This document shows positions 10,535 through 60,186 of a stretch of 64,000 nt of DNA, piece after piece (the stretch's first letter is position 1; the number at the start of each line of letters is the position of its first letter). Made by a program: the position numbers and the translations under genes. The notes beneath the pieces are model-generated. The model made no database searches, was not told where the DNA came from, and saw only the letters and a program-made list of their open reading frames with translations. The stretch comes from an uncultured bacterium (lineage in GTDB: Bacteria; Bacillota_I; Bacilli_A; RFN20; CAG-826), in NCBI GenBank assembly GCA_949295325.1, contig CASFKG010000001.1, positions 391,928 to 455,927 of the forward strand, in the 5' to 3' direction.

Positions 10535-10650
10535 AGGACAAATAAAACAAAAACCACCGCACAGGGGAAGGGGGTTTAGGGCTGCTCGGTTCCCCGCCTG
10601 ACCCGGTTCGCCTCCCGCTCCTCGCGATGGCATAGCGATTATATACGCTT

Positions 10651-12938: not shown

Positions 12939-15575
12939 TTATTCGACTTCGTCCGGAGTCACGACCTCTTCCGGCGCGGAGCCGCCGTCCTCGGCCGGCA
13001 TTTCTTCGGCTGCCGCCGCCTCTTCCTCGTCGCTATGGGGGACGACGGCAATCGAGGCGACCTTCTGGCGGTCTTCGAGCGCGATTATCTTGACGCCTTG
13101 GGTGTTGCGCCCGGCGATCTTGACCTGGGATAGCGGGGTCCTGATGACGATGCCCTGCTGGGTTATGACCAGCAGGTCTTCGTCGCCGTTCACGGCCCGC
13201 ATGGCTATGAGCTTGCCGTTCTTGTCGGTCGTCTTTAACGAAAGGACGCCTTTGGCTCCGCGCTTGGTCAAGCGGTAGCCGTCGTAGTGCCTTCCGTCTT
13301 CCGTATCGACGTCCTTGGCATAGCTGATCTTGCCGTAGCCCTTCTGCGTCAAGACGAGTATCTTGTCGCCTTCCAGGCTGCTGGTGATTCCGACGATGTG
13401 TTCGTTTTCCTCCAAGTCCATGCCGCGGACGCCGGCGGCGGTCCTGCCCATCGGACGGACGTCGGTTTCGTAGAAGGAACAGACCTTCCCGTTGTCGGCG
13501 CCCAGCGAGACGATCACGTGGCCGTCGGTAAGCTTGACGTCCAAGAGGTTGTCGCCTTCGCGGAGCGAAAGGGCGATCTTGCCGTTGTTGTGGATGGATT
13601 TGAATTCGCTGAGGGCGGTGCGCTTTACCACGCCGTTTGCGGAGCAGAAGAAGAGATAGCGGCCGTCGTCGTAGTTGTCGCACGGCACTATCGAGACGAT
13701 GCGTTCTTCCTTGTCGAGGTTCAACAGGTTGTTGACGGGCATGCCCTTGCCGACCCTCGAGGAGTCGGGGACGCGGTAGCCCCTCATGCGGTAGACCTTC
13801 CCGAAGCTCGAGAAGAAGAGCAGGTCGGTGTGGGTATGGGCATGCAGCATGATCGAAACGATGTCGTTGCTGTAGGTGGAAATGCCCTTCACGCCCTTCC
13901 CTCCCCTGTTCTGGGTACGGAAGGTGTCGTCGTTCATCCTCTTGAGATAGCCGTTCTTGGTGAGGACGATTATGAGGTCTTCCTGCGGAATCAGGTCTTC
14001 GTTATCGATGTCTCCGGCGGCGTCGGTTATTTCGGTCAGGCGCTTGTCGCCGAATTTCCCCTTGATCTCGTTGAGTTCCTCGATCATGAGATCGACGATG
14101 TTGTCGCGGTTAGACAGCAGGCGGTTGTACTCGGCGATGTTCCTCAGCAACTGTTCGTGCTCGTCGCGGAGCTTCGCCTGTTCCAATCCCTGAAGGCGGC
14201 GGAGGGTCATGGCCAAGATGGCGGCGACCTGCGGCTCGTCGAAGCCGAAGCGTTCGTTTAGCCTACGTCCCGACTCCTCGTCGTTCTTGCTGTCGCGGAT
14301 TATGTGGATTACCTCGTCGATGTTGTCGTGGGCCATCATGAGTCCGACGACTATGTGGTCGCGGTCCGAATCCTTCTTGAGGCGGAATTTGGTGCGCCTG
14401 GTCAAAACGCGGACCTGGAATTCGATGTAATTGCGCAGAAGCTCGGTAATCGGGAGGATTTTCGGGGCTCCGTCGACCAAGCAGAGGTTGATGACCCCGA
14501 AGTTGCACTGCAGCTGGGTGTGTTTCAGGAGGTTGTTGGCGACGACCTCCGGAACGGCCTCGCGCTTGACTTCGATGACGATGCGGATGCCTTCCTTGTT
14601 GGATTCGTCGCGGACGTCGGTTATGCCTTCGACCACCTTGTCGCGGACCAGCTGGGCGATGTTGGAAATCATCGCCGATTTATTCACCTGGTAGGGGATT
14701 TCGGTGACTATTATTCGGGATTTGCCGTTGTCCATTTCCTCGATGTGGTAACGCGAACGGATGGTTATGGTGCCGGTGCCGGTCGTATAGGCGTCGAGGA
14801 TTCCTTGGCGGCCGAGTATGACGCCGCCGGTCGGGAAATCGGGTCCCGGTAGGTAATTGGCCATTATTTCGGCCGGGGTGAGATCGGGGTTCTTCGAAAG
14901 CGCGACGACCGCATCGATGGTTTCCGAAAGGTTGTGGGGCGGCATGTTGGTGGCCATGCCGACGGCGATGCCTTCCGCGCCGTTGACGATCAGGTTCGGG
15001 AAGCGGCTCGGGAGTACTTCCGGTTCCTTTTCGGTGCCGTCGTAGTTGTCGACGAAATCGACGGTTCCCTGGTTAATGTCGCGGACCATTTCCACGGCCA
15101 GCTTGCTCATGCGGGCTTCGGTATAACGCATGGCGGCCGGTTCGTCGCCGTCGACGGAGCCGAAGTTGCCATGCCCGTCCACCAGCGTGTAGCGGAGGCT
15201 GAAGGGCTGGGCCAGGCGCACGAGGGTCATGTAGATGGCGCTATCGCCGTGCGGGTGGTATTTGCCCATGACGTCGCCGACGATACGGGCGGATTTCTTG
15301 TAGGGGCTGCCGGGTTGCATGCCGGTTTCGTTCATCGCGTAGACGATGCGGCGCTGGACGGGCTTGAAGCCGTCCCTCACGTCCGGAAGGGCACGCGACA
15401 CGATGACCGACATCGCGTAGTTCAGGAAAGCGGTTTGGACTTCCTTAGTCAAGTCGCGGTCGATCATACCCGGGACGATGCCCTCGACCGCTTCCCCGAA
15501 TTCCTCCTCGGGGGCGGCTTTGGAGTCTTCTGCGTTCTCCCCTTCGGCCGGGGTCTTCTTGTCTTCGTTTTCCAT
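12939..15575 (-). CDS. gyrA: DNA gyrase subunit A
   Basis: Canonical ...[25 protein letters not shown]... active-site region, 878 aa, acidic C-terminal tail. Confidence 0.97.
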
Positions 15576-15585
15576 GTGCTTCTCC

Positions 15586-17622
<2,037 letters not shown>

Positions 17623-18693
17623 TTATTTATCCTCCATGCGGATGGTGTTGGTATCGATACGGTTGATGTCTTCGGCCGGTATGTCCTCGGCGCTCGTGAT
17701 TATGGTCTGTTCGTAACTTCGCAAGAGCCCGAAGAGCCGATCGCGGTGTGCGGCATCCAGTTCGCTCAGGACGTCGTCCAGGAGCACGACCGGTTCGTTT
17801 TCGCTGCCTCTTAGCAGTTCGTAGGGGGCGAGTTTCAGGGCCAGGGCCCCCATGCGGTTTTCGCCTTGGCTTCCGTATAGCCCAATGTCCTTCCCATTGA
17901 GCAGCATGCGGAAGTCCTCGCGGTGGATGCCTCCCTGGGTGGCCCCGTAGCGGAGGTCCGATTCGAGGCTTTGCCGGTAATAGTTCCCGGCGGCCTCCCC
18001 GTAGTCGTGTCCCTCATCGACGAACGGCTTGTAGAGGAGGAGGGCCCTCTTGTCTTCGCCGTATAGCGCCGAAGAAGTCGTTCCGATGGCCTCGGAAAGA
18101 CCGGAGAGATAGGCCGAGCGTTTCCTTTCGACGGGGGCGGAAACCGCTATCAGCCTCTGCGTGACGGCCTCTATCGCGGCCAAGTCGGGTTCTTCTTCCT
18201 TGAGAAGCGCATTGCGGTCCTTCAGGAGCTTCCCGTAGTCGCTTAGGGCCTTCAGGTAGTCTTTGTCTTCCCTACTGATGCAGAGATCCAGGAACGACCT
18301 TCTCGCGCTCGGGGACCCGAGGAAGAGCCCGACGTCTTCCGGATAGAAGAGCAGGGCGTTCAGCCGGCCTATCAGCGAGCTGAGTTTCCTGAGGGGTTTG
18401 CCGTCCACGGTGACCTTCTTGCCTTCCTTGGAGAAGCAAGACGCAACGCGGTAGGAGCCGCTCCCCCTTAGGACCCGCGCCTCGGCATAGGCTTCCTTTT
18501 TGCCATATGCGATTAGCGGCAGGTCGGAGTCGGTCCGGAAGCTGCGGCCGACGCTCAGGGCATAGACGGCCTCGAGTATGTTGGTCTTGCCCGAGCCGTT
18601 GGGTCCGTGGATCAGGTTGACCCCCTTTCCGAACGCGATGTCCAGTCTTGGGTAGTTCCGGAAATCGCGGAGCCTTAGAGAGGCGACCCTCAT
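17623..18693 (-). CDS. recF: DNA replication and repair protein RecF
   Basis: Walker A GPNGSGKTN and conserved RecF N-terminus MRVASLRLRDFRNY. Start set at that Met, 357 aa. The 448-aa ORF extension was rejected. Confidence 0.9.
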   Translation of the reverse strand: MRVASLRLRDFRNYPRLDIAFGKGVNLIHGPNGSGKTNILEAVYALSVGRSFRTDSDLPLIAYGKKEAYAEARVLRGSGSYRVASCFSKEGKKVTVDGKPLRKLSSLIGRLNALLFYPEDVGLFLGSPSARRSFLDLCISREDKDYLKALSDYGKLLKDRNALLKEEEPDLAAIEAVTQRLIAVSAPVERKRSAYLSGLSEAIGTTSSALYGEDKRALLLYKPFVDEGHDYGEAAGNYYRQSLESDLRYGATQGGIHREDFRMLLNGKDIGLYGSQGENRMGALALKLAPYELLRGSENEPVVLLDDVLSELDAAHRDRLFGLLRSYEQTIITSAEDIPAEDINRIDTNTIRMEDK

Positions 18694-18914
18694 GTGGACA
18701 AAATCCTGAACGTCCCTTCCTTGAGCGTCACCGTATCGCCGGGATGGAGCTTTCTCCCCCGGCGGTTGTCGGGTTCGCCGTTGACGTAGACCTCGTTGCT
18801 CGAAAGGTAGGATTTTGCCTCCCCTCCGGTCGAAATCACGTCCGCGAATTTCAGGAATTGCCCCAGGGCAATCGTGTCGCCTTTGATATAGACGTTTTTG
18901 GCACTTTCTTCCAC
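18690..18914 (-). CDS. yaaA: S4-domain RNA-binding protein YaaA
   Basis: 74-aa S4-like protein in the conserved dnaN-yaaA-recF position. 4-nt overlap with recF start. Confidence 0.8.
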   Translation of the reverse strand: MEESAKNVYIKGDTIALGQFLKFADVISTGGEAKSYLSSNEVYVNGEPDNRRGRKLHPGDTVTLKEGTFRILST

Positions 18915-18985
18915 GCGGATAGTTTACTACTACGTAGTAAAAAAGAAAACGCCTTTCGGCGTCTTCCAAGCACTATTCAGAAGGC

Positions 18986-20107
18986 TTAGCGGGACCTCAT
19001 CGGAGTGACGACTTCGATGATCGAATCGTCCTTGGGGTTCTTGACCATGAACGGCTTCATTTCCCCCAGGAAGGAAATGATGACGTCTTGCCCCCGGACG
19101 GCCTTGACGGCATCGGCGACGAAGGTCGAGTTGAAACTGATCTCGAGACGTTCGCCGGTATATTGGAAGTTTTCAAGGCACTCGGTACCGGACCCCGTGG
19201 CGTCCGATCTGGTCGAAACCTCGACCCTGTCCCTGGTCATGGTCAGTTTGACGACCGGGGCGCGGTCGGCGTTTAGAACGCCGATGCGTTCGATGGCGCT
19301 GAGGAGCTCCAGGGCGTTGGTCTCGAGATAGTAGTTGAAGGTGGTCGGAATGATGTGGTCGTTTATCGGATATTCGCCCGAGAGGACGGAGCACGAAACG
19401 AGGGTGCTGCCGAACGCGAAGATGGTCTTGTCGGGGAAGCACGACATGCGGACCTTGTCGTAGCCCTCCAGCATCCTCACGACGGTCGTGAGCGTTTTGG
19501 CGGGTACGTTGGTCGCAAAGGCGATGTTGGCGGGAATATCGACGCATTTGCGGGAAAGCCTCGCCGAGTCGCTCGCAGTGGCGGTCAGCCTGCCGCCGGC
19601 GGCTTTGAGGAATATGCCGGTCAATACCGGCCGGCTGGACTTGATGGGGGCCGCAAAGGAAGTCTGGTCGACCAGTTCGGTAAGGGTCTTCGCGGAGAGT
19701 TCGAAGGAATTTTCGGACTCTTCCAAGACGACGTCGGGGTACTGGGCGGCATCGATGCAGTTGAGTTTGAACTCGCTCTTGCCGTCGCTTAGCTTGGCCA
19801 CGGAGCCGTCAACCACTTCGATGGTGACTTCGGCGGAGTCGATCTTTTTCAGCAGTTCGCTAAGTACGCGGGCGTTGAGGAGGATGGCGCCGCTGGCGGC
19901 GTTCCTTATTATTTCGGTTTCTCCGATCGCCAACGGTACAAGCGTAAAGACCGTTATGTCGTTGTCGCTTCCGGTGATCTCGAGCCCCCTGCTGGTCATT
20001 TCGAGCTTGAAGGTCATGAGAACCGGGTTGGCGGACTTCGCTCCTATGGCGTGCCCGGCCGTTACCAGGCCTTTGAGAAACTCTTCTTTGTTAATGGTTA
20101 AGCGCAT
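18986..20107 (-). CDS. dnaN: DNA polymerase III beta sliding clamp
   Basis: 373 aa with a three-domain clamp pattern, immediately downstream of dnaA. Confidence 0.95.
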   Translation of the reverse strand: MRLTINKEEFLKGLVTAGHAIGAKSANPVLMTFKLEMTSRGLEITGSDNDITVFTLVPLAIGETEIIRNAASGAILLNARVLSELLKKIDSAEVTIEVVDGSVAKLSDGKSEFKLNCIDAAQYPDVVLEESENSFELSAKTLTELVDQTSFAAPIKSSRPVLTGIFLKAAGGRLTATASDSARLSRKCVDIPANIAFATNVPAKTLTTVVRMLEGYDKVRMSCFPDKTIFAFGSTLVSCSVLSGEYPINDHIIPTTFNYYLETNALELLSAIERIGVLNADRAPVVKLTMTRDRVEVSTRSDATGSGTECLENFQYTGERLEISFNSTFVADAVKAVRGQDVIISFLGEMKPFMVKNPKDDSIIEVVTPMRSR

Positions 20108-20258
20108 GACTTGGCCCCCCTTAAGTTTATTTATTCTTTCTTGCTTTTTATTAACTACGACGATGATTATGTCGGTGGAAAATGTGGATAACTCGATTTT
20201 CGACCTCCGACATTATACTTTTCCTATTTCGGTCTGACACGGATTTCTTAGGAAATCA
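20108..20258. promoter_or_regulatory. oriC part 2: dnaA-dnaN intergenic DnaA box plus AT-rich candidate unwinding element
   Basis: Perfect DnaA box TGTGGATAA at 20183-20191 and an AT-rich tract at about 20121-20170 (ttaagtttatttattctttcttgctttttatt). Firmicutes often have a bipartite origin flanking dnaA. Confidence 0.6.
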
Positions 20259-21614
20259 CTAACCTTTTAACTTGGCCTTGAGGGTGCTTACGGTCTTGCG
20301 GAGATCGGCGTCTGTTTTCAACGTTTTTTCCACTTTTTGTACACCGTTCATAACCGTGGCGTGGTCTTTGCCGCCGAAGTACTCCCCTATCTTGGCGAAA
20401 GGAAGATCCAATATATTCCTTATTAGATACATGGCGATGTGACGGGCCAAGGCTATCTGCCCGGTACGGTTCCTTCCGGTAATCTGGGCCGGGGAAAGAT
20501 AGAAGAAATCGGCTACCGTGTTGACGATTTTCTCCTCGCTTATCTTGGTGTCTTCTTCCTTGGCCTCGATGTCGTCCTGGACGGCCCTTTTTGCTTCTTC
20601 GAGGGTAATCGTCTTGGAGGGGTGCCCCGTCATGAAGAAAATCAGGCGGACCAGCCTTCCCTCGAGCTCGCGTACGTTGCTCGAGAACTGCTTCGCGAAG
20701 AAAGGAATGATTTCTGGGTCAAAGGCCGATTCGTCAAGACCGTAGGCTTTAATTTTTGTTCTCAATATCCTTTCCGACGTTTCTTGGTCCGGCGGGTTTA
20801 CCGATAGCGTCAGCCCTTGGGCGAACCTCGTGAGAAGACGTGAGGAGAAGCCCTCCATCTTCGAGGGGTGGGTATCGCTCGTAAGCACGACCTGCCTACC
20901 CAAGCTTATCAACATATTAAAGATCGAAAAGAACGTTTCCTCGGTATTTCTGCGGCCTTTTAGAAATTGCACATCATCGACGAGGAGCATATCGACACGA
21001 TCGCGGAAAAATCCACGCAATTCGTCACCTCTTTTTTCACCAGTGACGAATTTCACGTATTCATCGAAGAATCCGTCCGCCGTGACATAGAGGACTTCTT
21101 TGCCGGGGAAACGCGCCTTGTAAGCATTTCCTATGGCGGTCAAAAGATGTGTTTTCCCGAGTCCCGAGCCTCCATAAATAAAGAGAGGATTGTATATGCC
21201 GGCCGGAGCCTTAGCCGCCATAAGGGCGGCTTGGTAGGCGGCGCGGTTGCTGTCGCCCTCGACGAAGTTCTCGAAGGTGAATTTTGGATCGAGGACGGAG
21301 TCCTTGAAGAATGAAGTCGTTTCTTTATTTTTCTTGTTGTCTTCGGCTTTGTCGCCTTCTTCGACGAATTCGACTGAGTAGTCGGACTGCGTAACGTCGC
21401 GGATTACCCTGTTTACCATCGGAGTATAGGATTTTGTAAGTACCTGAACGGCGACCGGCGAATTGACGGCGACGTAAAGGGTTTTACCGACGGCCCCGTT
21501 TATCTTGGTCGAAGAGAAAAACGAATCATAGACCTGGTTGTCGTCTATCTCGGAGGCGATTCTTTTCTGGGCCTCCTTCCAGATGTCGGCTAGTGCGGTG
21601 ACGGTGGTATCCAT
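20259..21614 (-). CDS. dnaA: chromosomal replication initiator protein DnaA
   Basis: AAA+ Walker A GGSGLGKTHLL, a C-terminal DnaA-box binding domain, 451 aa. Confidence 0.97.
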   Translation of the reverse strand: MDTTVTALADIWKEAQKRIASEIDDNQVYDSFFSSTKINGAVGKTLYVAVNSPVAVQVLTKSYTPMVNRVIRDVTQSDYSVEFVEEGDKAEDNKKNKETTSFFKDSVLDPKFTFENFVEGDSNRAAYQAALMAAKAPAGIYNPLFIYGGSGLGKTHLLTAIGNAYKARFPGKEVLYVTADGFFDEYVKFVTGEKRGDELRGFFRDRVDMLLVDDVQFLKGRRNTEETFFSIFNMLISLGRQVVLTSDTHPSKMEGFSSRLLTRFAQGLTLSVNPPDQETSERILRTKIKAYGLDESAFDPEIIPFFAKQFSSNVRELEGRLVRLIFFMTGHPSKTITLEEAKRAVQDDIEAKEEDTKISEEKIVNTVADFFYLSPAQITGRNRTGQIALARHIAMYLIRNILDLPFAKIGEYFGGKDHATVMNGVQKVEKTLKTDADLRKTVSTLKAKLKG

Positions 21615-21636
21615 TTCGGGGAAAATTTACCACTTT

Positions 21637-21993
21637 TCAACAATTGCTAGTATACGAAAGGTCAAAATCTAAAGTTATCCACAATCGATAATTCGAAAAC
21701 ACAGCGCCGCTGCTAGGAAAAACGTTTTCCACAACTTTGAGAATGTGGATAAAATGTGGATAACTTATTAACAACCGAACGAAATGTGGATAACTAGAAG
21801 GGAATCGCCTGTTTTCCACGGTCGGACATCCTTGAAAAACCAGAAACCGTCTAGCTGAAATGCCTGTTTTCCACAGGAATGTTGATAATTTTTCCACCGG
21901 TGAGTGGATAACTTTTTCGGTCTCGCGTGCGAGAGGGCGCGCAATAGATATTCCTTGTGGGCGGGTGCCCGAGTCCCTATAATCTACCCGCAC
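21637..21993. promoter_or_regulatory. oriC part 1: DnaA-box cluster upstream of dnaA
   Basis: Perfect DnaA boxes TTATCCACA at 21674-21682 and TGTGGATAA at 21744-21752, 21755-21763 and 21785-21793. Near-matches TTTTCCACA at 21725-21733 and 21867-21875, and AGTGGATAA at 21903-21911. Confidence 0.8.
21955..21983 (+). promoter_or_regulatory. sigma-A-type promoter of rpmH
   Basis: -35 TTGTGG (21955-21960), 17-nt spacer, -10 TATAAT (21978-21983), then RBS AGAGGAGAG before the rpmH ATG. Confidence 0.5.
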
Positions 21994-22025
21994 GCACGTT
22001 TTTACCGCGAAGAGGAGAGTAGATC

Positions 22026-22163
22026 ATGAGCAAGAAAACCTATCAGCCCAGCAAGCTAAAGCACCAAAACGTCAACGGCTTCAGGGCCCGCATGAGCACC
22101 CATAACGGCCGCAAGGTCCTAGCCCGCCGCCGCGCCAAGGGCCGCGCCGTCATCAGCGCCTAA
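22026..22163 (+). CDS. rpmH: 50S ribosomal protein L34
   Basis: 45-aa [48 protein letters not shown]. Too short for the ORF track. Classic L34 sequence directly upstream of rnpA. Confidence 0.85.
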
Positions 22164-22165
22164 GG

Positions 22166-22504
22166 ATGAAAAAAACCGACCGGATCCTTTCTTACGAGGA
22201 GTTCGCGGAGATTAGGAAAAACGGGACCCGCGTCAGAAGCGGGTCCTTCCTAATAAGCTACCGGAAAGGCAGCACCGGCCGCGCCCGTGTCGGGATAAGC
22301 GTAAGCAAGAAAAACGGCAATGCCGTCATCCGCAACCTAATCAAAAGGCAAGTCCGTGCCGCCATCGACGACTGTCTCGATTATTCCTCGGGCCTAGATA
22401 TCGTCATTACCGCCCGTTACGGTTACGACACCGCCAAAGGCCGGGAAAACGCAGCCGAGTTGGCCGCGGAACTGAAAGCCATCGGAGCAACTAACATTGA
22501 ATAG
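22166..22504 (+). CDS. rnpA: ribonuclease P protein component
   Basis: 112-aa basic protein in the conserved rpmH-rnpA-yidC position. Confidence 0.9.
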   Translation: MKKTDRILSYEEFAEIRKNGTRVRSGSFLISYRKGSTGRARVGISVSKKNGNAVIRNLIKRQVRAAIDDCLDYSSGLDIVITARYGYDTAKGRENAAELAAELKAIGATNIE

Positions 22505-40169: not shown

Positions 40170-40321
40170 GGATATGCTTTTTTGACCCTTTTTAACGGCA
40201 TTTGTCTATTTTTGTATGTGTCCAACCAAGCAAAAAACTCCCGAATCCCCTAACGTTTTTTGCCGGTTTGTCTAGAATTTTTCCTTATGGTGCTCAAATG
40301 CATATCGATAAATTTGAATTG

Positions 40322-40343
40322 CATTTGTAAGCCCTTACAAATG
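40322..40343. promoter_or_regulatory. cre-like 22-bp palindrome (CATTTGTAAG-CC-CTTACAAATG), putative CcpA/LacI-family operator
   Basis: Perfect 10-bp inverted arms. The core TGTAAGCCCTTACA matches the cre consensus TGWAANCGNTNWCA except at the central CG. An extra half-site CAAATGCA lies at 40295-40302. Confidence 0.5.
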
Positions 40344-46016: not shown

Positions 46017-48866
46017 ATGAACACTTTACTAGCCATGGTGCTGGCCCTTTCCTCCTTCGGCGGCCTTGCATCGGGAGACAGGCTTGGTGCCTTTGTCCCC
46101 TCTGACTGGTCGCTGTCGGGAGGCGGGGCGGTAAGTGCCTACTACGACATCGGCGACACCATAACCGCCAAGAGCACCCAAACAACGTTAAGGGGCAATT
46201 TCCTCATCAATGAATCCGAAACGCATCTTGGCGATTATACCGTTTCTATAACCGGAAGCGCCGAAGAGTCCTGGCCGGTAAGCAAATCAGTCCAGATCGG
46301 CATAGTCCCATGGTACTTGGATAGTAACAACTACATTCTCGTCTATATGGAATGGAGTCCGACTGAAAGACCAACCGGCATGCGCGTAGTCGAATTCACC
46401 GGGCGCATCGACGGACAGAACCCGGTCGTCTACAAGGACGGCGGATTCGTCCAATCGGAATGGAACGATGCCTGGATGGACGGGGCCAACGAACCATATG
46501 CCATCGATCCGTCGAGCGACTGGACGTTCAGCGTCAAAAAGGAAAGGAGCGCGGCCGGCGATACCGACGAGTTCACGGCCTATATAAACGGCAACAAAGT
46601 CGGATTCTATGGATTCCGTGACGTTCCCAAGTATTCGGCCAAGCCTGCCAAATCAGGTATCTACTGCTATAACGACAACGTCACCATAACCGATTATTCG
46701 GTGACGCCGGTCGCCGATGATAGTTTGTTTCACGATATCGGGGGAGGCTATGTCGGCAAGGCCGCTAGCGGCGACTGGGACGTAAGCGGGAACACCCTTT
46801 CTATCGATGCCTCTTCCAGCGTCGATCCCATATCCTCTACCATTGCCATTACGGAAAATACCTACGAAGGCAATTTCCGCTTAAAGGGAACGTTTGCTTC
46901 TTCCTCCCTCGTCAATAACGGCGGCATCGGCTTGGTGCCTTGGTACCAAGACGAAACCAACTATTTGACTGCTTATGTCGGTATGGTTGGAGGAACCAAA
47001 TCGCTCATGGTCGAAGGAATGGTCACCGCATATTCGGGCGGTGGCATGAGCCAAACCCCTATTAACGACACATTACCGTTGGATTCGGTGGAAAACGTCG
47101 GAGATATTTCGCTTATTGCCGATAAACAAGGCAGCAGAATTTCCCTATATCTCGAAGGTGGCGAAGATAACAAGCTCGAAGTAAGCAATCCCGCTTTCGC
47201 CACCGCTTCTTATATCGGGACTGCGGTCAGTGCCTGTAACGTAAGCATCGACTTCGAAAGCGAAGCCCTCGTCTACAACTCCTTCGACTGGTATGACCTA
47301 ACTCTCGGAGGAAACAAGGTAAGCGTCAAATCCGCGACCGATGCCGAAGGCCTCTTCGCGTACGACGAAGGCACCTACACAGTTTCCGATGAAGCGGTCG
47401 TTTCAGGCGATTTGACCAAACAGGCCGCCTTGTCCCTAGCCACTTCCTATGTCGGCGAAATATCCGTTTCCGCCGATTTCGCTCCTTTGGCGGAAGGCCA
47501 GGAATACGGTCTCTATCCGTTTTTGGTCGACGAAGACAACTACGTGCGCATCGGTCTTAAATCCGATGCATTTACCGTTTACTTGGCAAATAACGGAACC
47601 GAAACCCAGAGAGGTTATGTCCTGCCCGCCAATTTCGATTCCGCGGCTTCTCACAATATTTCCGCCGAACTCGCCAGCGGTACGCTCAATGTTACGGTAG
47701 ATGGCGCTTCGGTAGTCGAGAACCTGCCTGTCGATGGTTACGATTTCTCCGACTCCCTTATGATCGGTTTCTTCTTTGCCGGCAAGGGCGGCAGCGTTTC
47801 CAATCTTAGCTATAGCGGTTTCTATCCTAATTCCGCGAAGAACGTTGGAGCCTGGACCGTCTACGGTCCCCGGCCGGACACCTGGACATTCGACGAAGAA
47901 AACAACACCATCACCGGAAAATACGATGGAGGTACCGTTTGGCAGGCTACCAACGCACTAATGAGCAACGAAAAAGCCGATTTCTGGTGCGCTTCCACCA
48001 TCAATGTGTCCGCGGTGACCGCTTCCGAGCACAAAGTCGGACTCGTCCCCTATTATCTCGATTCCAACAACTACGTCTTCGTCTGGTTCAGCCGCTGGGC
48101 CGGTTCTACCGCCAACACCAATGTCACCGTGCGTATCAACGGCCAGATCCTCCCGCCGGAATGGGGAGAAAGGGAAATCGGAATCCAATTCGAAGGGACC
48201 GACAACAAACTCGAAGCCCATATCGAAGGGGACACCGTTTCCGTTTATGTTTCCGGGGCCTTCGCACCGGTATATACCGGCAATTACCCCGGATTGTCGG
48301 AGAGAACGCTGTCCGGAGCGAAGAGCGGCCTTAACATCTCCAACGTTTCGGCCACCTTCAAGGACACCGTCCTCGGTGCCGACGATAGGCCATATGCCTT
48401 CAACGAGAAGCCGTCCATCAACGAAATTGGCACCCGCGTCACCGCCGGCGTGGTAGGCGAAAGGATTGCCCTGCCGATCTACACCGCGACCAACAGCAAC
48501 AACGATCCGCTGACGGCGGTTGTCAACGTTACGGATCCTTCAGGCGAAGCCGTGGTTCTCGAAAGGAACGGATTTGTCCCCGAAACGGCCGGTATCTACC
48601 ACGTCGAAGTTACCTGCACCGACGACTGGGGCAATTCCGCCGACCCCGTTTCCTACGACATAACGGTAACAGAAGCCCAAACCGGCGGAGACACTTCTTC
48701 AGAGCCGGACACCGGCGGCAACACCGGCGGAGGGACAACCGATCCCGAAGGCAACGGGCTAGGTCTAATGCTCGGCATTGTGTTCGGTTGCCTAGGCGGC
48801 GCAGCCGTTATCGGCCTGGCTATCTTCCTCTTCATACGTTATCGCAACAAAAAGACAACGGAATAA
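46017..48866 (+). CDS. large surface protein with four tandem copies of an uncharacterised beta-rich module, Gly/Thr linker and C-terminal TM anchor
   Basis: Signal peptide and four roughly 200-aa repeats, each with the motif G-[IL]-[VY]-P-[WFY]-[YL]-x-D-x-[DN]-N-Y. A low-complexity GGDTSSEPDTGGNTGGGTTDPEGNG stalk follows. C-terminal hydrophobic helix plus RYRNKKTTE. Confidence 0.7.
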   Translation: MNTLLAMVLALSSFGGLASGDRLGAFVPSDWSLSGGGAVSAYYDIGDTITAKSTQTTLRGNFLINESETHLGDYTVSITGSAEESWPVSKSVQIGIVPWYLDSNNYILVYMEWSPTERPTGMRVVEFTGRIDGQNPVVYKDGGFVQSEWNDAWMDGANEPYAIDPSSDWTFSVKKERSAAGDTDEFTAYINGNKVGFYGFRDVPKYSAKPAKSGIYCYNDNVTITDYSVTPVADDSLFHDIGGGYVGKAASGDWDVSGNTLSIDASSSVDPISSTIAITENTYEGNFRLKGTFASSSLVNNGGIGLVPWYQDETNYLTAYVGMVGGTKSLMVEGMVTAYSGGGMSQTPINDTLPLDSVENVGDISLIADKQGSRISLYLEGGEDNKLEVSNPAFATASYIGTAVSACNVSIDFESEALVYNSFDWYDLTLGGNKVSVKSATDAEGLFAYDEGTYTVSDEAVVSGDLTKQAALSLATSYVGEISVSADFAPLAEGQEYGLYPFLVDEDNYVRIGLKSDAFTVYLANNGTETQRGYVLPANFDSAASHNISAELASGTLNVTVDGASVVENLPVDGYDFSDSLMIGFFFAGKGGSVSNLSYSGFYPNSAKNVGAWTVYGPRPDTWTFDEENNTITGKYDGGTVWQATNALMSNEKADFWCASTINVSAVTASEHKVGLVPYYLDSNNYVFVWFSRWAGSTANTNVTVRINGQILPPEWGEREIGIQFEGTDNKLEAHIEGDTVSVYVSGAFAPVYTGNYPGLSERTLSGAKSGLNISNVSATFKDTVLGADDRPYAFNEKPSINEIGTRVTAGVVGERIALPIYTATNSNNDPLTAVVNVTDPSGEAVVLERNGFVPETAGIYHVEVTCTDDWGNSADPVSYDITVTEAQTGGDTSSEPDTGGNTGGGTTDPEGNGLGLMLGIVFGCLGGAAVIGLAIFLFIRYRNKKTTE

Positions 48867-48881
48867 CTTATAGATAATCGC

Positions 48882-48918
48882 AAAAAAGTCGGTGTGGCCT
48901 TGACCAGCCGACTTTTTC
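48882..48918 (+). terminator. Rho-independent terminator
   Basis: AAAAAGTCGG...CCGACTTTTT hairpin (inner TGG...CCA pairing) followed by a T-run. Confidence 0.5.
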
Positions 48919-49042
48919 GTTTCATGGTGCCAAAATGCATAAAGGGCAAGTCTCGCGATATTAAGCAGCATAGTGCCAATTCATACAATGAAACTGCGAA
49001 GAACATCGTTTTGCTGGAACCAGCAGTTGAATTTTGAATCGA

Positions 49043-49056
49043 TGTAAGCGCTTACA
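49043..49056. promoter_or_regulatory. catabolite responsive element (cre) TGTAAGCGCTTACA
   Basis: Perfect 14-bp palindrome matching cre consensus TGWAANCGNTNWCA. It sits 17 bp upstream of the ATG at 49073 and abuts the RBS AGGAGA. Confidence 0.55.
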
Positions 49057-49072
49057 AGAAAGGAGACCGATC

Positions 49073-50989
49073 ATGAACGGAAAATGGCTCAGAATCGCCG
49101 GTGTCGCATTGCTCGCCGCTGGCGTTGTTACGGCCGGAACCGTCATTGCGACTTTGCCCGACACACTTCTGATGGCCGGAGCCAATGACGGCTACACCAT
49201 CAATCTCGACAGCGAAAACGCCCCGGAGCTCGCCGAAGGGACCGGTAGCATAACCGCTGTTAGCAATACTGGCTACGGCTTAGTTGGAATCGTCTATGAC
49301 GGGGCCACATCCAATGAAGGCAACCACGTTGCTCTAAACGAAGGAGGGAGCATCAGGAACTCCGACCAGATTACCGCCATTACCGATATTCAAATAAATT
49401 ACACCGGAACTCTCACGTTGGGCTTCGGTCGGACTGCTGAGGTTTTTGTTCCCGTCGCCGGTATCCCTAGCGGCGTTCCGACCGAAGTGGTTGGAACCCC
49501 TCTGTATTTTGATATTTCCGCCGGCGCCGGCGGGGCCGTTATCGAAAGCATAACCGTTACGTATTCGTGCGATCCGTCCCCGGTTTACGCGGATTTGGAC
49601 GTAACCGTTCGCCTTCCCGGCTATCTTGAGGGCGGCGAGGCCGTGACATTGAAACAAGGCGATTCCTCCGCGTCCATGAGTGTTACAACCGAAGACATAT
49701 TGACATACGAGGCGAACGTCAAAAATGTCGATCCCTATAGTGAGTTCACGGTCGTCGTCGGCGAAGCCACTAGCAACCCATTCCGTCTCGATTCCCTAAA
49801 TGGCCTGAGGGCCACGAAGGTTCTGTCTTCGGAAATCGACTACGACGGGTTCGTGAAAGGATTCGAGATGACGGACTACAAAGGTTCCGTTACCTATTCG
49901 CAGAGCGCGCCAGACGCCATAAAAGTCACGAGCAACGAATCCAACGGAAACTTCCTAACCAAGGACGCCGAACTTGGCAATAAGTATTCCGTAGAAGCCC
50001 ACATTCAAGGCACCGTTGATGCGTTGCCGGTTGCCAATAACATCAATGCCGGTCTCCTTGCCTATTACCAAGACGCCGACAATTGGCTGGCATTCTATGC
50101 CGAATGGAAGGTTGCTACCGAAACCAACAGGCCAAACGAATTGGCTTCTATCCAACCGGCCGTTTCAACAAACGGAGTTGTCAGTTATCCTTCTCCGATC
50201 TGGTGCGACGGAATTAGTGCCACCCCTCATGACGGGCTTGACCTCAAGATCGATGTCGAGATATCCACTGCCGGCGTCGTTGCCACCGCCACGGCATTGG
50301 TCGGCGGACAGACCAAGACCGGATCCGCGACCATGTCCGGAACCTTCGCGGAAGGCAGCAAAGTCGGTGTCTACTGTTTCGGCGATACCGTAGATTTCAC
50401 TTCCTTCTCCTACGAAAAATTGGAGATAACGACCGATTGGCAGGTCCTTGCCCCTGGCAGCAATCCTACTACATTCAAAGAGGACGGCGGTTCACTGGTC
50501 GTCAACAACGATGGAAACTGGAAAGCCGGTTTTGTCGGCAAGCCCGTTACCGTTGGTGCATCCTACAGCATCTCGTCTCATATTGCGGGAACTACTACCG
50601 GAAATGTCGAAAGCGAGTTGATGCTCGGATTCCTTGCCTACTATACCGATCCGGACAACTTCATCATCGCGTATGTCCAGTACTCACCAACAGACAGGCC
50701 CCACGAAGCACGGGAAGTCCAGATTACCGGCCATATCGGCGGGAACGATATCGGATGGTGCGATATCTGGACCGACGGGAACGGCGTTCATCCGGCAGAC
50801 GGCTTCGACCTGAAAGTCGACGTCGAAATCGGAGGCGGGAACGCCACCGTCTCGGCGACCATGACCACCGGGGCCGGCTATGTGAAAACCGGTAGTCGGA
50901 CGGTCGAAAACGTGGAAAATCTTCCTACCCATCTCGGCGTTTATTGCCAAAACGAGACGGCGACCTATACCGGCCTCGTCATCGAATAA
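49073..50989 (+). CDS. surface protein paralog with N-terminal signal-anchor and two or more copies of the same beta-rich repeat module
   Basis: Start chosen at MNGKWLRIAGVALLAAGVV (RBS AGGAGA 6 nt upstream). Repeats carry GLLAYYQDADNW and GFLAYYTDPDNF motifs like those of the 46017..48866 protein. Confidence 0.7.
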   Translation: MNGKWLRIAGVALLAAGVVTAGTVIATLPDTLLMAGANDGYTINLDSENAPELAEGTGSITAVSNTGYGLVGIVYDGATSNEGNHVALNEGGSIRNSDQITAITDIQINYTGTLTLGFGRTAEVFVPVAGIPSGVPTEVVGTPLYFDISAGAGGAVIESITVTYSCDPSPVYADLDVTVRLPGYLEGGEAVTLKQGDSSASMSVTTEDILTYEANVKNVDPYSEFTVVVGEATSNPFRLDSLNGLRATKVLSSEIDYDGFVKGFEMTDYKGSVTYSQSAPDAIKVTSNESNGNFLTKDAELGNKYSVEAHIQGTVDALPVANNINAGLLAYYQDADNWLAFYAEWKVATETNRPNELASIQPAVSTNGVVSYPSPIWCDGISATPHDGLDLKIDVEISTAGVVATATALVGGQTKTGSATMSGTFAEGSKVGVYCFGDTVDFTSFSYEKLEITTDWQVLAPGSNPTTFKEDGGSLVVNNDGNWKAGFVGKPVTVGASYSISSHIAGTTTGNVESELMLGFLAYYTDPDNFIIAYVQYSPTDRPHEAREVQITGHIGGNDIGWCDIWTDGNGVHPADGFDLKVDVEIGGGNATVSATMTTGAGYVKTGSRTVENVENLPTHLGVYCQNETATYTGLVIE

Positions 50990-52570: not shown

Positions 52571-54344
52571 CGGTGATTATCTTAGTCAGTTTTTCCAAGG
52601 GAATCTTGGGTTTTCTATCGGCGTCCAAGATGCCGTTTTGCTCGCTGTAGGTATCGGTCAGCTGGGTCAAGCAATATCCGGCCACGGATTTGTTCGTCCG
52701 CGCGGCGTCGAGTATGCCCTTTAGCCTTTCGGCGAAGGAGTCTTCGTCATTCACGACGCCATAACCCCAGGCTCCTTCCTTCACCGAGTAGCCGATTCCT
52801 CCTATTTCGTCCAGGAAAATCGGTTGGCCTTGGTAATTGTAGCCATTGGCGAAAGTAAGGCGGGTCTGCGAGTATTTCGGAAGTCCTTTGTTTTGCGTGA
52901 TTATGTCGATATCGCTGTAGAAGTCCGCCAATTCCGCCGGGTTTTGCGCGTAATTGTGAAGCGTTATGGCATCGCTCAGAGTATGTTCCCAACCGTCGTT
53001 GGAAATGACGATTCTCGTCTCGTCCAAGGCTTTGGTCGCGTGGTAGAGGGCAAGGCTTAGCTCTTGCTCGTTTTTCCTCGAATCTATGTCCGGCACGCCC
53101 CATGATTCGTTTATAGGCATGTACATCACGATGGACGGGTGGTTGTAGTGGCCCAAAACCGCTTCCGGCCATTCCCTCAATAGCGACCTAACCGTGTTGT
53201 CGCCAAACGAATACGGCGAGGGCATTTCCAGGCTGCAAAATAGACCGACCACGTCGCAGGCGTAGTAGAAGCGGTCGTCTTCGATTTTCTGGTGCATCCT
53301 CACGCCGTTGAAGCCCAGGGATTTGATGAGGGTGACTTCCCTCATTATTTCCCCCATGTCCTTGTAGGTAGGACCGCTATCCGGAAGGAAACCCTGATCC
53401 ATGACCATGCTCAGGAAAACCGGATTCCTATTTAGGAGAAACGCGTTGTTGCGTGTTTCGAAGAAACGGACGCCGAAATAGGTATCGACGGCGTCTGAAC
53501 CATTCCCGGCCTTGAGAATCGCCCTTACCTCGTAGAGTTCCGGGCTCTGGGGCGACCATAGGCCGCGGTTGAAGTCGCTTCCTTCGTCGGTTTTCGTCGA
53601 TACGGAAATGCGGCCCTTGGATTGGCTCGAGGCCGCGGAAAACGTTCCGATCGGCTTGCCTTTGAAACTGACATCGAGGGAAAGCACCATGTTTTGGACC
53701 GGATTTTCGATCTCGTAGTCCGCAACCGCGGTTTCTCCTCCCTTTGACGGGGTAAAACGCAGGGATTTGATCCTGGTATGGGGAACTTCCTCGATGAAAA
53801 CGCTTTGGTAAATGCCGCTAAAAGGCGTATACCAGCATCCCCAAGGCTTCTCACGCCATGACTGCTTCCCGCGCGGTCGGTCGTTGGCGTTGTCGTCTTC
53901 GACCCTCACGGCAATCAGGTTTTCGCCGTTTTTCACGCTGCCGGTTATGTCGATTTGGAAGGAACTGAAACCGCCTTCGTGGGTGCCGCAAAGCATACCG
54001 TTGACGTAAATCTCGGCCTTGTAGTCGACAGCCATGAAGTTCAGGAGCAGATCATTGCCTTTAGCCGGCCTATGCAGCTCCCTTTTTAGGAAATACCAAA
54101 CGACGGGATGGTAGCCTTCTTCCCCTATCCCAGAACTTTTGGTCTGGTAGGCAAAAGGCACGGTGATACTGCGAATTTCGTTAGGTATTCTCTTATAAAA
54201 ACCCTTAGCTTTCCCCAAATTGCCGTCATCGTATAGGAAACCCCATTCGCCGTTAAGCAGTGTGTAGTTTTCTCTTACGAAGTTAGGACGTGGGTAGGCT
54301 TCCCGGAAGCCTCTTACATGGCGGATATGTTCCATAATTAACAT
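52557..54344 (-). CDS. glycoside hydrolase family 2 (beta-galactosidase/beta-glucuronidase-like)
   Basis: 595 aa with GH2 domain order (sugar-binding jelly roll, Ig-like, TIM barrel) and a ...FNGVRMHQKIED... segment resembling the GH2 catalytic region. Confidence 0.8.
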   Translation of the reverse strand: MLIMEHIRHVRGFREAYPRPNFVRENYTLLNGEWGFLYDDGNLGKAKGFYKRIPNEIRSITVPFAYQTKSSGIGEEGYHPVVWYFLKRELHRPAKGNDLLLNFMAVDYKAEIYVNGMLCGTHEGGFSSFQIDITGSVKNGENLIAVRVEDDNANDRPRGKQSWREKPWGCWYTPFSGIYQSVFIEEVPHTRIKSLRFTPSKGGETAVADYEIENPVQNMVLSLDVSFKGKPIGTFSAASSQSKGRISVSTKTDEGSDFNRGLWSPQSPELYEVRAILKAGNGSDAVDTYFGVRFFETRNNAFLLNRNPVFLSMVMDQGFLPDSGPTYKDMGEIMREVTLIKSLGFNGVRMHQKIEDDRFYYACDVVGLFCSLEMPSPYSFGDNTVRSLLREWPEAVLGHYNHPSIVMYMPINESWGVPDIDSRKNEQELSLALYHATKALDETRIVISNDGWEHTLSDAITLHNYAQNPAELADFYSDIDIITQNKGLPKYSQTRLTFANGYNYQGQPIFLDEIGGIGYSVKEGAWGYGVVNDEDSFAERLKGILDAARTNKSVAGYCLTQLTDTYSEQNGILDADRKPKIPLEKLTKIITGENS

Positions 54345-54373: not shown

Positions 54374-55282
54374 ATGTTCGGCGCGTGGCATTATATGCAA
54401 GTTGACACCATGGGAGTTAAGGCTAAGTTCAACGACGATTTCCTCAAAGGGAGTCTGACCTTATACAACTACAATCCGAGCGTTTCCCGTTCCTTTTTGA
54501 TTTACCCGCAGCTGGTCGGCCACCAGATCGTGGGTCCCGCTTACTACAACGAAGTGGAATTCGGGAACACCTACATGCTCAATTTCACCGTCTCCGGTTC
54601 CGGCGAATTCCGCAGTCCGGGCTTGACCCAAACCGTCGGGCCAGGCGACTTGATATTCATTCATAACTACCTCCATCATTCTCTGAAGCCAAGCAAGGGC
54701 AAGCCGTGGGAGTTCTACTGCATCCATATTTTCGATAACGACATTGTCAGCCGTTTTTACCGTTCGGTCTTGGCCAAGCAGGGATTTTTGATCCGCGGGT
54801 TTCCCAAGCAGAAGGTCGTGCCGGCCATTCTCTCGATTCTAGACAAGCTCGAGGAACAGACGGAGCACGACGACTTCGCCATTTCCAAGGTCCTATACAA
54901 CATGCTTGCCGATATTACCGAGGAAGCCGAATCGCGGGCCTTCAAATCATTCAATCCCGCGGTTGACGACGTCGTGGCCTTCATCAAGGACAATTTCGAC
55001 AAGCCGTTGCCCCTTAAGGCCATATTGGCCAAGACGACATATAGCAAAAACCATCTCGAGCGCCTGTTCAAAGCCCAGATGAACATGACCATCCAGGAAT
55101 ACATTTTTTACCTGAGACTGCTGAGGAGCCAGGAACTTCTGGTTTCGACCGATATGCCGTTAAAGGAAATCGCGGACAAGGTGGGATTAAGCGAGTACCG
55201 TTCCCTTTATCACATGTTCAAGAAAGCAACCGGCTTCTCACCAGACGAATATAGGAGGGTGGCCGGGTCCAAAAAAGCATGA
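54374..55282 (+). CDS. AraC-family transcriptional regulator (cupin sensor plus HTH)
   Basis: N-terminal cupin-like domain and C-terminal tandem HTH (...YSKNHLERLFKAQMNMTIQEYIFYLRL...). Divergent from the GH2 gene. The start could be a downstream Met. Confidence 0.85.
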   Translation: MFGAWHYMQVDTMGVKAKFNDDFLKGSLTLYNYNPSVSRSFLIYPQLVGHQIVGPAYYNEVEFGNTYMLNFTVSGSGEFRSPGLTQTVGPGDLIFIHNYLHHSLKPSKGKPWEFYCIHIFDNDIVSRFYRSVLAKQGFLIRGFPKQKVVPAILSILDKLEEQTEHDDFAISKVLYNMLADITEEAESRAFKSFNPAVDDVVAFIKDNFDKPLPLKAILAKTTYSKNHLERLFKAQMNMTIQEYIFYLRLLRSQELLVSTDMPLKEIADKVGLSEYRSLYHMFKKATGFSPDEYRRVAGSKKA

Positions 55283-55320: not shown

Positions 55321-55608
55321 GTGCGGATCGACAAGTTCCTGAAGGTAAGCCGGCTTACCAAGCGCCGGGAAACGGCGAGGGCGTTATGCGATGCCGGTCT
55401 GGTAAGCATGAACGGCAAGGTCGCCAAACCTAGCAGCGAAGTCGATGCCGGGTCCCTCTTGGTATTGAGAATGGGCCGGAGGGTCGTTACCGCGAAAGTA
55501 CTCTCCGTTAGGCCCTACGCCAACAAGGACGAAGCGCAGAAGATGTACCAGATAGAAAGCGATGAACCGCTGAAGGAGGACGCTACTGATGGAATACAAG
55601 ATAATTAA
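55321..55608 (+). CDS. S4-domain RNA-binding protein (YabO/Hsp15-like)
   Basis: 95 aa with an S4 fold pattern (MRIDKFLKVSRLTKRRETARAL...). Overlaps tilS start as in Bacillus yabO. Confidence 0.8.
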   Translation: MRIDKFLKVSRLTKRRETARALCDAGLVSMNGKVAKPSSEVDAGSLLVLRMGRRVVTAKVLSVRPYANKDEAQKMYQIESDEPLKEDATDGIQDN

Positions 55609-60117: not shown

Positions 60118-60158
60118 AAAGAGCCCCGGTTCACTAAAGTGAAAGCGTTTTCAGAGTC

Positions 60159-60186
60159 TTGACGAAAAAGATGTTTTCTTTACAAT
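60159..60186 (+). promoter_or_regulatory. sigma-A-type promoter of the marR-ABC exporter operon
   Basis: -35 TTGACG (60159-60164), 16-nt spacer, -10 TACAAT (60181-60186). Palindrome TTCACTaaAGTGAA lies just upstream at 60130-60143. Confidence 0.45.

Follow-up and report, generated by a model that had tools for sequence, protein, structure and literature searches.

A conserved cre-type palindrome upstream of a putative surface-protein gene in a glycan-utilisation island of an uncultured Bacilli bacterium

The palindromic 14-mer TGTAAGCGCTTACA, which lies just upstream of the gene for a 638-aa probable surface protein in an uncultured bacterium, is very probably a working catabolite-repression operator of the CcpA/LacI type, given that it is kept 5′ of the same gene in four related uncultured gut-type Bacilli. 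It was analysed within a 64-kb stretch of contiguous DNA, referred to below as the window, whose relevant features are collected in Table 1. The palindrome ends 3 nt 5′ of the Shine-Dalgarno sequence AAGGAG and 16 nt 5′ of the ATG at 49073. The original prediction had placed it between a terminator and the ribosome binding site and start codon; that location stands, but the coordinates given for the ribosome binding site were a few bases off (AAGGAG occupies 49060-49065 and the ATG 49073-49075).

Table 1. Coordinates of genes and of observed or predicted control elements, numbered from the first nucleotide of the window.
Feature	Position	Strand	Remarks
Companion cre-like box TGTAAGCCCTTACA	40326-40339	.	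Centre CC, not CG; overlaps the predicted -35 of the transporter operon
Motif B copy	40287-40304	+	Before the sugar ABC-transporter operon
949-aa surface-protein gene	46017-48866	+	From the ORF list; last gene of the transporter operon
Intrinsic terminator of the 949-aa gene	48883-48918	+	Stem-loop about 48883-48913, U-run to 48918
Motif B, ATGGTGCCAAAATGCATA (18-bp box, also given as ATGGTGCNNAAATGCATA)	48924-48941	+	5 nt 3′ of the terminator; before the 638-aa gene
Predicted -35, TTAAGC	48961-48966	+	TTAAGG in L001, at identical distance
Predicted -10, TACAAT	48984-48989	+	TAGAAT in L001, same 17-nt spacer (relaxed promoter scan)
Putative cre-type operator TGTAAGCGCTTACA	49043-49056	.	Palindromic 14-mer 5′ of the 638-aa gene
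Shine-Dalgarno sequence, AAGGAG	49060-49065	+	7 nt 5′ of ATG 49073; GGAG kept in L001, L007 and L008
Target gene (638 aa)	49073-50989	+	N-terminal hydrophobic segment, uncharacterised domain, two tandem concanavalin-A-like beta-sandwich repeats
Motif B copy ATGGTGTCAACTTGCATA	54394-54411	-	Before the divergent GH2 / membrane protein / ABC ATPase operon
AraC-family regulator gene	54374-55282	+	Pfam and NCBIfam: cupin AraC_binding domain and two HTH
Third cre-consensus site TGAAAGCGTTTTCA	60140-60153	.	Just 5′ of promoter TTGACG-16-TACAAT

The conserved cre positions used for comparison with the consensus were taken from published work (PMC3463425). Together with its flanking bases (A TGTAAGCGCTTACA A), the 14-mer matches the classical cre pattern WTGNAANCGNWNNCW with 0 mismatches when read on either strand, and it fits the stricter pattern TGNAANCGNTTNCA, again with 0 mismatches, bearing out the claim that the consensus is matched at every constrained position. 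Two sites of the stricter pattern were found in the 64-kb window against 0.05 expected, and none of 100 shuffled sequences contained two or more. The pattern TGWAARCGYTWWCA, which includes G2, C7 and G8, is likewise matched on both strands without mismatch, as in a consensus cre; the cre-type motif is also written as TGNAAGCGNTTNCA. Compared with the high-affinity B. subtilis consensus TGAAAGCGCTTTCA, 12 of 14 positions agree, and the mismatches fall at positions 3 and 12, a symmetric pair under weak constraint (PMC3463425). Cre-like matches with two mismatches occurred in the window at chance level. The palindromy of TGTAAGCGCTTACA is not special, because the window contains 10 perfect 14-bp palindromes compared with 4.4 in shuffled sequences. 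Palindromy alone is not evidence; the significance of the element comes from its consensus match, its intergenic position and its conservation across species. A literature search with the exact 14-mer and near variants returned nothing relevant.

Conservation was assessed in four species with a common gene order, namely that of the window and three others, represented by the loci L001/L002/L004, L007 and L008/L009. The first of these is a sister species, with housekeeping proteins 69-80% identical to those of the window and a target protein that is 52% identical; L007 was reached through a remote full-length homolog, and L008/L009 through a 54%-identical homolog of the 790-aa gene that lies further upstream. 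A cre-like box with an invariant AAGCGCTT core is present 5′ of the orthologous or homologous surface-protein gene in all four syntenic species (TGTAAGCGCTTACA in the window, TGGAAGCGCTTACA in L001, TGAAAGCGCTTACC in L007 and AGAAAGCGCTTTCA in L008), and the differences among these boxes are at consensus-N or terminal positions. In a gapless alignment the L001 box is identical to that of the window at 13 of 14 positions, the sole change being at N-position 3; the P value for this conservation is about 2e-4 per 14-nt segment and about 0.025 when all segments are counted. Over positions 48919-49066 the same gapless alignment gives 44% identity outside the named blocks, and the only conserved islands are motif B, described below, and the cre box. 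Retention of 13 of 14 positions over this background, together with the boxes in L007 and L008, is the pattern expected of purifying selection. In these last two species the box lies within the -35/-10 spacer of a motif-B-dependent promoter, 50-57 nt from the ATG. The predicted element is kept in all four species while its position has shifted between the core promoter and the site abutting the ribosome binding site, which argues for a DNA-binding repressor and against an RNA role linked to ribosome binding.

These comparisons bear on the idea that the box has no protein partner at all, being either a palindrome that arose by chance and persisted because it adjoins the ribosome binding site or a small mRNA hairpin beside the Shine-Dalgarno sequence. 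Perfect 14-bp palindromes are indeed common in the window, and with a start where it is predicted the site would be part of the transcript. Set against this are the conservation of the box well above the 44% background and its retention elsewhere, in the core promoter, in two further species, which excludes an RNA role tied to the ribosome binding site. An unspaced palindrome can moreover give only a 5-bp stem with a 4-nt loop, and in the consensus fold predicted for the leader, which at -6 kcal/mol is negligible, the box takes no part in pairing. An explanation without a protein partner is accordingly regarded as highly improbable. An RNA element in the leader was also considered and rejected, given the same -6 kcal/mol fold, the absence from L001 of a terminator-like hairpin at 49011-49026, and an Rfam search that gave no family match near the leader.

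The 638-aa gene is separated from the preceding 949-aa gene by an intrinsic terminator at the end of the latter: a G+C-rich stem-loop with a U-run behind it and a folding energy of -17.8 kcal/mol (z = -4.1). Hairpins of other sequence are found at the equivalent place in L001 (-27.4 kcal/mol), L007 (-21.9 kcal/mol) and L008 (-18.2 kcal/mol), those of L007 and L008 with U-runs as well. The terminator is genuine, and it is its structure, not its sequence, that is conserved in the four species; a simple terminator scanner missed it at 48883-48918. Just downstream of it lies motif B, which is conserved at 16 of 18 positions in L001. Three copies of motif B were found in the window against 0.22 expected (allowing up to 3 mismatches), and every copy precedes an island transcription unit; the copy on the minus strand overlaps the probable start codon of the AraC-family gene (54410). 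Downstream of motif B, a relaxed scan identified the predicted -35 and -10 hexamers of Table 1, and the promoter has the same spacing to motif B, and the same spacing to the cre box, in the window as in L001. A strict promoter scanner found nothing in this region, and the predicted -35 is weak. The layout, consisting of motif B, 19 nt, the -35 position, 17 nt and a -10-like hexamer, is common to 11 promoters in 4 species, among them those of the transporter and GH2 operons, all with a fixed 41-42 nt from motif B to the hexamer. The hexamers include TACAAT, TAGAAT, GATAAT, TAAAAT and TAATAT, as well as the weaker GAGACT, GAAACT and AAAAAT; GATAAT stands at the equivalent distance from motif B in both L007 and L008. 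Transcription is predicted to start near 48996, with motif B centred near -63.5, and the 638-aa gene appears to have its own activator-dependent promoter.

Motif B is probably the site of the island's AraC-family activator. AraC/XylS-family activator sites stand at a fixed distance from the -10, as motif B does here. The box is asymmetric, its length is within the range of about 17-20 bp for sites of this family, and it co-occurs with a gene for such a regulator, properties that together mark it as a predicted AraC-family site. In two loci that encode a member of the 790-aa family with an ArsR-like regulator and without an AraC gene (L010 and L011), neither motif B nor cre was found. The true start of the AraC-family gene is probably the ATG at 54410, from which the N-terminus MGVKAKF aligns with MSVKAKF of L007. 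Other readings of motif B were rejected. As a sigma-54 promoter it would need GG-N10-GC, where it reads GG-N9-GC, and the island's own regulator, being of the AraC type, is no enhancer-binding ATPase; as a sigma-A -10 or -35 it has no consistent partner hexamer, and its fixed 42 nt to a separate -10 is better suited to an upstream activator site. The original prediction, in which this second conserved box, on which the promoter appears to depend, did not figure, held that the 638-aa gene has its own catabolite-repressed promoter and is not simply read through. The terminator and the conserved promoter-like architecture favour that view, but the cre stands outside the promoter, in the 5′ untranslated region about 53 nt 3′ of the predicted -10. 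A promoter overlapping the cre, with TTGAAT at 49027 or 49034 lying 20 or 13 nt from TACAAG at 49053, was rejected, as its start would be inside the Shine-Dalgarno sequence.

A regulator of another family could in principle occupy the box, either the AraC-type protein at a second, distal site joined to motif B by a DNA loop or a dimer of the MerR or MarR type. Motif B and the promoter keep exactly the same distance to the box in the window and in L001 (53 nt from -10 to box, no indels), a TTG stands 20 nt 5′ of TACAAG/TACAAA in both, loosely like the long-spacer promoters of MerR-type regulators, and the third cre-consensus site of the window precedes a MarR-like gene. The box is nevertheless unlike motif B in sequence, and AraC-family sites are asymmetric rather than CG-centred dyads, while a MerR-type start 7 nt 3′ of TACAAG would fall inside the Shine-Dalgarno sequence and yield an mRNA without a ribosome binding site. 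Furthermore, the GH2 promoter has motif B without such a box, and the spacing from motif B to the box is not conserved in L007 or L008. A regulator from outside the LacI family is thereby rendered most unlikely, and a LacI-type protein is preferred.

The companion site upstream of the transporter operon was confirmed as a real feature of the window, although it differs from the target box in lacking a central CG. It is centred near -26.5 of the predicted transcript of the transporter operon. Its counterpart in L001, at the equivalent place, reads TGAAAGGGGTTTCA: the symmetric positions 3 and 12 differ in concert, so that the dyad is preserved, and the central CG is absent from both species. 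No counterpart of the companion box was found in L008. Since it has no central CG in two species and no counterpart in L008, the companion box is the weaker candidate. The third site precedes an operon for a MarR-like regulator and an ABC exporter that is unrelated to the island, and it is conserved in L001 as GGAAAGCGTTTTCA between diverged flanks. Counted over the 64 kb of the window, there are thus three conserved cre-type sites, one of them before this unrelated operon. The upstream region of the GH2 operon contains motif B and no cre-like site. The proposal that the whole island is under catabolite control was therefore overstated, given a GH2 operon without cre and a companion box that lacks the CG and is absent from L008; predicted cre-type control extends to two of the three island transcription units. 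Elsewhere in the window, a cre-like match at 53794, inside the GH2 gene, was dismissed as not conserved, and the palindrome GTAAGCCGGCTTAC at 55345 was dismissed because of its location within the S4-domain gene and its absence from L001.

The window has a G+C content of about 51-59% (roughly 55%) and carries dnaA-dnaN-recF-gyrB-gyrA, tatD-ksgA-ispE-glmU, mfd, and an S4-domain gene followed by tilS-ftsH-dus, an order that we take to be that of B. subtilis around its origin. The only match to the target protein in the genome collection comes from a sister-species MAG labelled 'uncultured Bacilli bacterium', and a homolog of the 790-aa protein is labelled 'Bacilli bacterium'. Judged by its gene order and by these labels, the host is a Firmicute of the class Bacilli with about 55% GC. 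A Firmicutes-type regulon in a high-GC organism, as the original prediction put it, is no paradox: the host is itself a Firmicute, and a Firmicutes-type cre is expected in it without anomaly.

CcpA regulons have been reconstructed in all analysed groups of Firmicutes (PMC4052901). Across the LacI family as a whole, nearly every operator is an even palindrome centred on CG, and about 90% of the regulators act locally (PMC4052901). Because the even, CG-centred palindrome is typical of the LacI family generally, sequence alone cannot name the binding protein. The reading preferred here, with moderate confidence, is that the palindrome is the cre of a LacI/GalR-family dimer encoded in trans, likeliest a CcpA ortholog, and that it subjects the 638-aa gene to catabolite repression. 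The principal competitor is a dedicated, pathway-specific LacI-family repressor encoded elsewhere and released by a glycan breakdown product, which would make the box an induction switch rather than a catabolite-repression element. The predominance of local regulators in the family speaks for such a repressor, as do the form of TGTAAGCGCTTACA, an even palindrome with a central CG like the operators of local LacI-type proteins (PMC4052901), the identical half-sites TGTAAG / CTTACA of both island sites in the window, and the fact that two of the three good sites in the 64 kb are within this one island. Yet no cognate gene was found in or next to the locus: LacI-family genes (PF00356, Peripla_BP) were absent from the 64-kb window, from 10 kb more upstream (L006) and from the three other syntenic loci, L001, L007 and L008. 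Local LacI repressors are normally encoded beside their targets. The island, moreover, already has a local regulator of the AraC family with its own conserved site, the conserved third site stands before the unrelated MarR/ABC-exporter operon, and the half-sites drift across species only within the degenerate cre consensus. A dedicated repressor is on this evidence a good deal less probable than the global one; the lack of a nearby LacI gene, the AraC regulator with its site and the third site suggest a global rather than a local regulator.

Some observations count against CcpA itself as the protein concerned. The two island sites have identical half-sites, which a dedicated repressor could bind just as well; CcpA sites strongly conserve a central CG, which the companion site does not have; and reduced, Mollicutes-like orders of Bacilli could lack CcpA, if the host is among them. 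Searches for hprK and ptsH found neither gene in the window, in the 10 kb upstream or in the 11-22-kb loci of the relatives. A more speculative and rather doubtful scenario is that the lineage may be without canonical CcpA/HPrK and that its TGNAAGCGCTTNCA boxes may be read by another global LacI-family regulator acting with an AraC-type activator, on an undescribed Gram-positive polysaccharide-utilisation locus built on two unannotated ConA-like surface glycan-binding families, in which the position of the box has moved while the logic has been kept.

In B. subtilis, a cre 3′ of the transcription start blocks elongation (xyl, ara, gnt, sigL, acsA), one overlapping the promoter occludes it, and one 5′ of the -35 can activate (PMC3463425). 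On the preferred reading, the 638-aa gene is a separate transcription unit, the preceding gene being ended by its intrinsic terminator. The AraC-family activator would bind motif B when the substrate glycan is present and recruit RNA polymerase to the weak sigma-A promoter (TTAAGC / TACAAT) with its start near 48996. In the presence of a preferred sugar, the cre at about +47 to +60 would be bound by the CcpA-type repressor (which in Bacilli acts with HPr-Ser46-P), and the bound cre, centred near +54, would be a roadblock to the elongating polymerase just 5′ of the ribosome binding site. A centre near +54, in the 5′ untranslated region, implies an elongation roadblock and not promoter occlusion. 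At the transporter operon, where the companion box lies over the -35, repression would instead be by promoter occlusion. We infer the direction of regulation, the identities of both DNA-binding proteins and the transcription start.

The plus strand of the island encodes, in order, a sugar-binding protein (40377), two permeases, the 790-aa and 949-aa proteins, the terminator and the 638-aa gene; the minus strand encodes an ABC ATPase, a MusI-like membrane protein and a GH2 glycosidase, after which the AraC-family gene follows on the plus strand. With its sugar ABC transporter, GH2 enzyme, pectate-lyase-like protein and ConA-like proteins, the island is a carbohydrate unit, and the box lies in the 5′ region of one of its genes, where a cre would be looked for; its exact place relative to the transcription start is a predicted one. 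The 790-aa protein has weak similarity to pectate lyases. No Pfam match was obtained for the 949-aa protein, which has a C-terminal hydrophobic stretch followed by basic residues, a transmembrane anchor, and which matches the profile of the 638-aa family (E = 1.2e-10) in 3 stretches; a ConA-like repeat is common to both. The surface proteins have C-terminal transmembrane helices as anchors and no recognisable sortase signal. Neither Pfam nor NCBIfam gave a match for the 638-aa protein, whose form starting at ATG 49073 is the one on record in the protein collection. Only 2 close clusters are on record for it. An exhaustive profile search returned 184 remote relatives with the tandem C-terminal repeat, the upstream 949-aa protein among them, and some of these relatives have weak GH43_C2 matches or a Laminin_G_3 match above Pfam's threshold. 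A structural model built from a 2-sequence alignment had low confidence (pLDDT 52; 65-85 in the C-terminal half) and matched laminin-G, legume-lectin, galectin and PL7 folds; no more than a fold class, and that for the C-terminal half, can be read from it. The 638-aa product is probably an exported or membrane-anchored, surface-exposed ConA-like glycan-binding protein. The pectate-lyase-like and GH2 genes nearby point to pectic or galactan-type glycans as candidate ligands.

Taken together, these data provide a concrete and testable regulatory map for an uncharacterised glycan-utilisation island of an uncultured gut or rumen-type Bacilli, with three transcription units that would have a common AraC-linked activator box and two that would also carry a cre-type veto. 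According to this map, the catabolite-control logic of B. subtilis extends to the lineage. The ConA-like families of the 638-aa and 949-aa proteins, both unannotated, are flagged as sugar-regulated and hence as probably glycan-related. The map leaves knowledge of cre and CcpA unchanged, describing the ordinary control of sugar genes in a Firmicute; the activator box, with its constant spacing, and two ConA-like surface-protein families that lack annotation are side results of some value.

Several known systems resemble the predicted arrangement. The core of the symmetric lac operator (TGTGAGCGCTCACA) differs from TGTAAGCGCTTACA at only one symmetric pair of positions. Local LacI-family operators such as the lac, MalR and RbsR boxes share with it the even palindrome, the central CG and a location in or near the usual zone 30-140 bp upstream (PMC4052901), whereas here no cognate LacI gene is adjacent in the four species and a further conserved site stands before an unrelated operon. 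The levanase operon of B. subtilis, controlled by LevR and by CcpA at a cre, likewise combines the site of a pathway-specific activator 5′ of a weak promoter with a vetoing cre (PMC3463425). LevR, however, is a sigma-54 enhancer-binding protein, in contrast to the AraC-type regulator and the sigma-A-like promoter predicted here, and sigma-54 spacing is GG-N10-GC compared with GG-N9-GC in motif B. Many AraC-family dimers bind two direct repeats, whereas motif B, the predicted binding site, occurs as one copy per promoter. The closest parallel is with the cre sites recognised by CcpA and HPr-Ser46-P in B. subtilis (amyO of amyE, and the roadblock sites of xyl, ara, gnt, sigL and acsA). The present case is unlike them in that binding by CcpA is a prediction in an uncultured lineage of about 55% GC, in that the box is a perfect palindrome, which is rare among natural cre sites, and in that the companion site has no central CG. 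It is like them in being a 14-bp, CG-centred (pseudo-)palindrome that fits WTGNAANCGNWNNCW and agrees at 12 of 14 positions with TGAAAGCGCTTTCA, in its place in the 5′ region of a carbohydrate gene and in its host of the class Bacilli; the first seven bases of the amyE cre, TGTAAGC, are those of TGTAAGCGCTTACA (PMC3463425). The positional logic of the B. subtilis sites, with a downstream roadblock, occlusion of the promoter and possible activation from 5′ of the -35, maps onto the three sites of the window.

An 18-bp box, ATGGTGCNNAAATGCATA, stands before each of the island's three transcription units, and equivalents lie at the syntenic loci of the sister species (L001) and of two further species (L007 and L008). 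A -10-like hexamer always follows 41-42 nt downstream of the box in the four species. Since related loci without the AraC-family gene have no copy of it, the box is probably the binding site of the AraC-family regulator. The longest open reading frame of the regulator gene (region 54374-54412) begins at 54374; conservation of the predicted N-terminus (MGVKAKF in the window vs MSVKAKF in L007) points to the ATG at 54410 as the start. On the minus strand, one copy of the box overlaps this codon, a hint that the regulator may control its own gene.

Predicted features and their positions in the window
Feature	Position	Strand	Remark
SRP RNA, small bacterial	10541-10638	-	Rfam, 54 bits
18-bp box	40287-40304	+
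18-bp box	48924-48941	+
18-bp box	54394-54411	-
Terminator-like hairpin and T-rich stretch	49011-49036
GH2 operon -10	54351-54346	-	TAGAAT
GH2 probable start codon	54335	-	ATG
Look-alike palindrome	55345-55358
Third cre-consensus site	within 60140-60186		perfect match

On the GH2 side, only 9-10 nt separate the end of the predicted -10 from the probable ATG in three of the four species (the window, L001 and L007), and no Shine-Dalgarno sequence precedes GH2 in three of the four. Given the predicted -10, the GH2 operon mRNA would be nearly leaderless in three of these species; L008 differs in having a leader of 24 nt that contains AGGA. In the predicted 5′ UTR of the 638-aa surface-protein gene, a small hairpin with a T-rich stretch after it was called terminator-like; as it is not conserved in the sister species, it is unlikely to be an attenuator.

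The third perfect match to the cre consensus (the CcpA/LacI-type operator), TGAAAGCGTTTTCA, is kept in the sister species. It lies directly 5′ of a strong promoter (TTGACG-16-TACAAT), a placement that would suit activation rather than repression of the operon behind it, which encodes ABC exporters and a 154-aa MarR-like regulator. The palindrome GTAAGCCGGCTTAC has the half-sites of the cre at 49043-49056 with a centre 2 bp wider; it was judged coincidental as a regulatory site, being intragenic (in an S4-domain gene, where it encodes KVSRLTK) and not conserved in L001.

Both surface proteins (46017-48866 and 49073-50989) share a tandem ConA-like repeat (relatives P0018-P0165) not covered by any model in Pfam or NCBIfam. 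At the N-terminus of the 638-aa protein, ~170 residues make up a domain of their own, which is also N-terminal in dozens of otherwise unlike proteins.

Elsewhere in the window, in the region 12939-22500, a dnaA-dnaN-recF-gyrB-gyrA cluster occupies the minus strand, and the stretch at ~21.6-22.5 kb, before yidC, has few genes and lower G+C; the window therefore probably spans the chromosomal replication origin. The SRP RNA was its only Rfam match.

In two other Bacilli MAGs (L010 and L011), the GH2, transporter and 790-aa genes form one co-directional cluster with an ArsR-like (HTH_5) regulator gene and CE2/GDSL esterase or sulfatase genes. The AraC gene is absent from this cluster, which is the same utilisation locus under different wiring.
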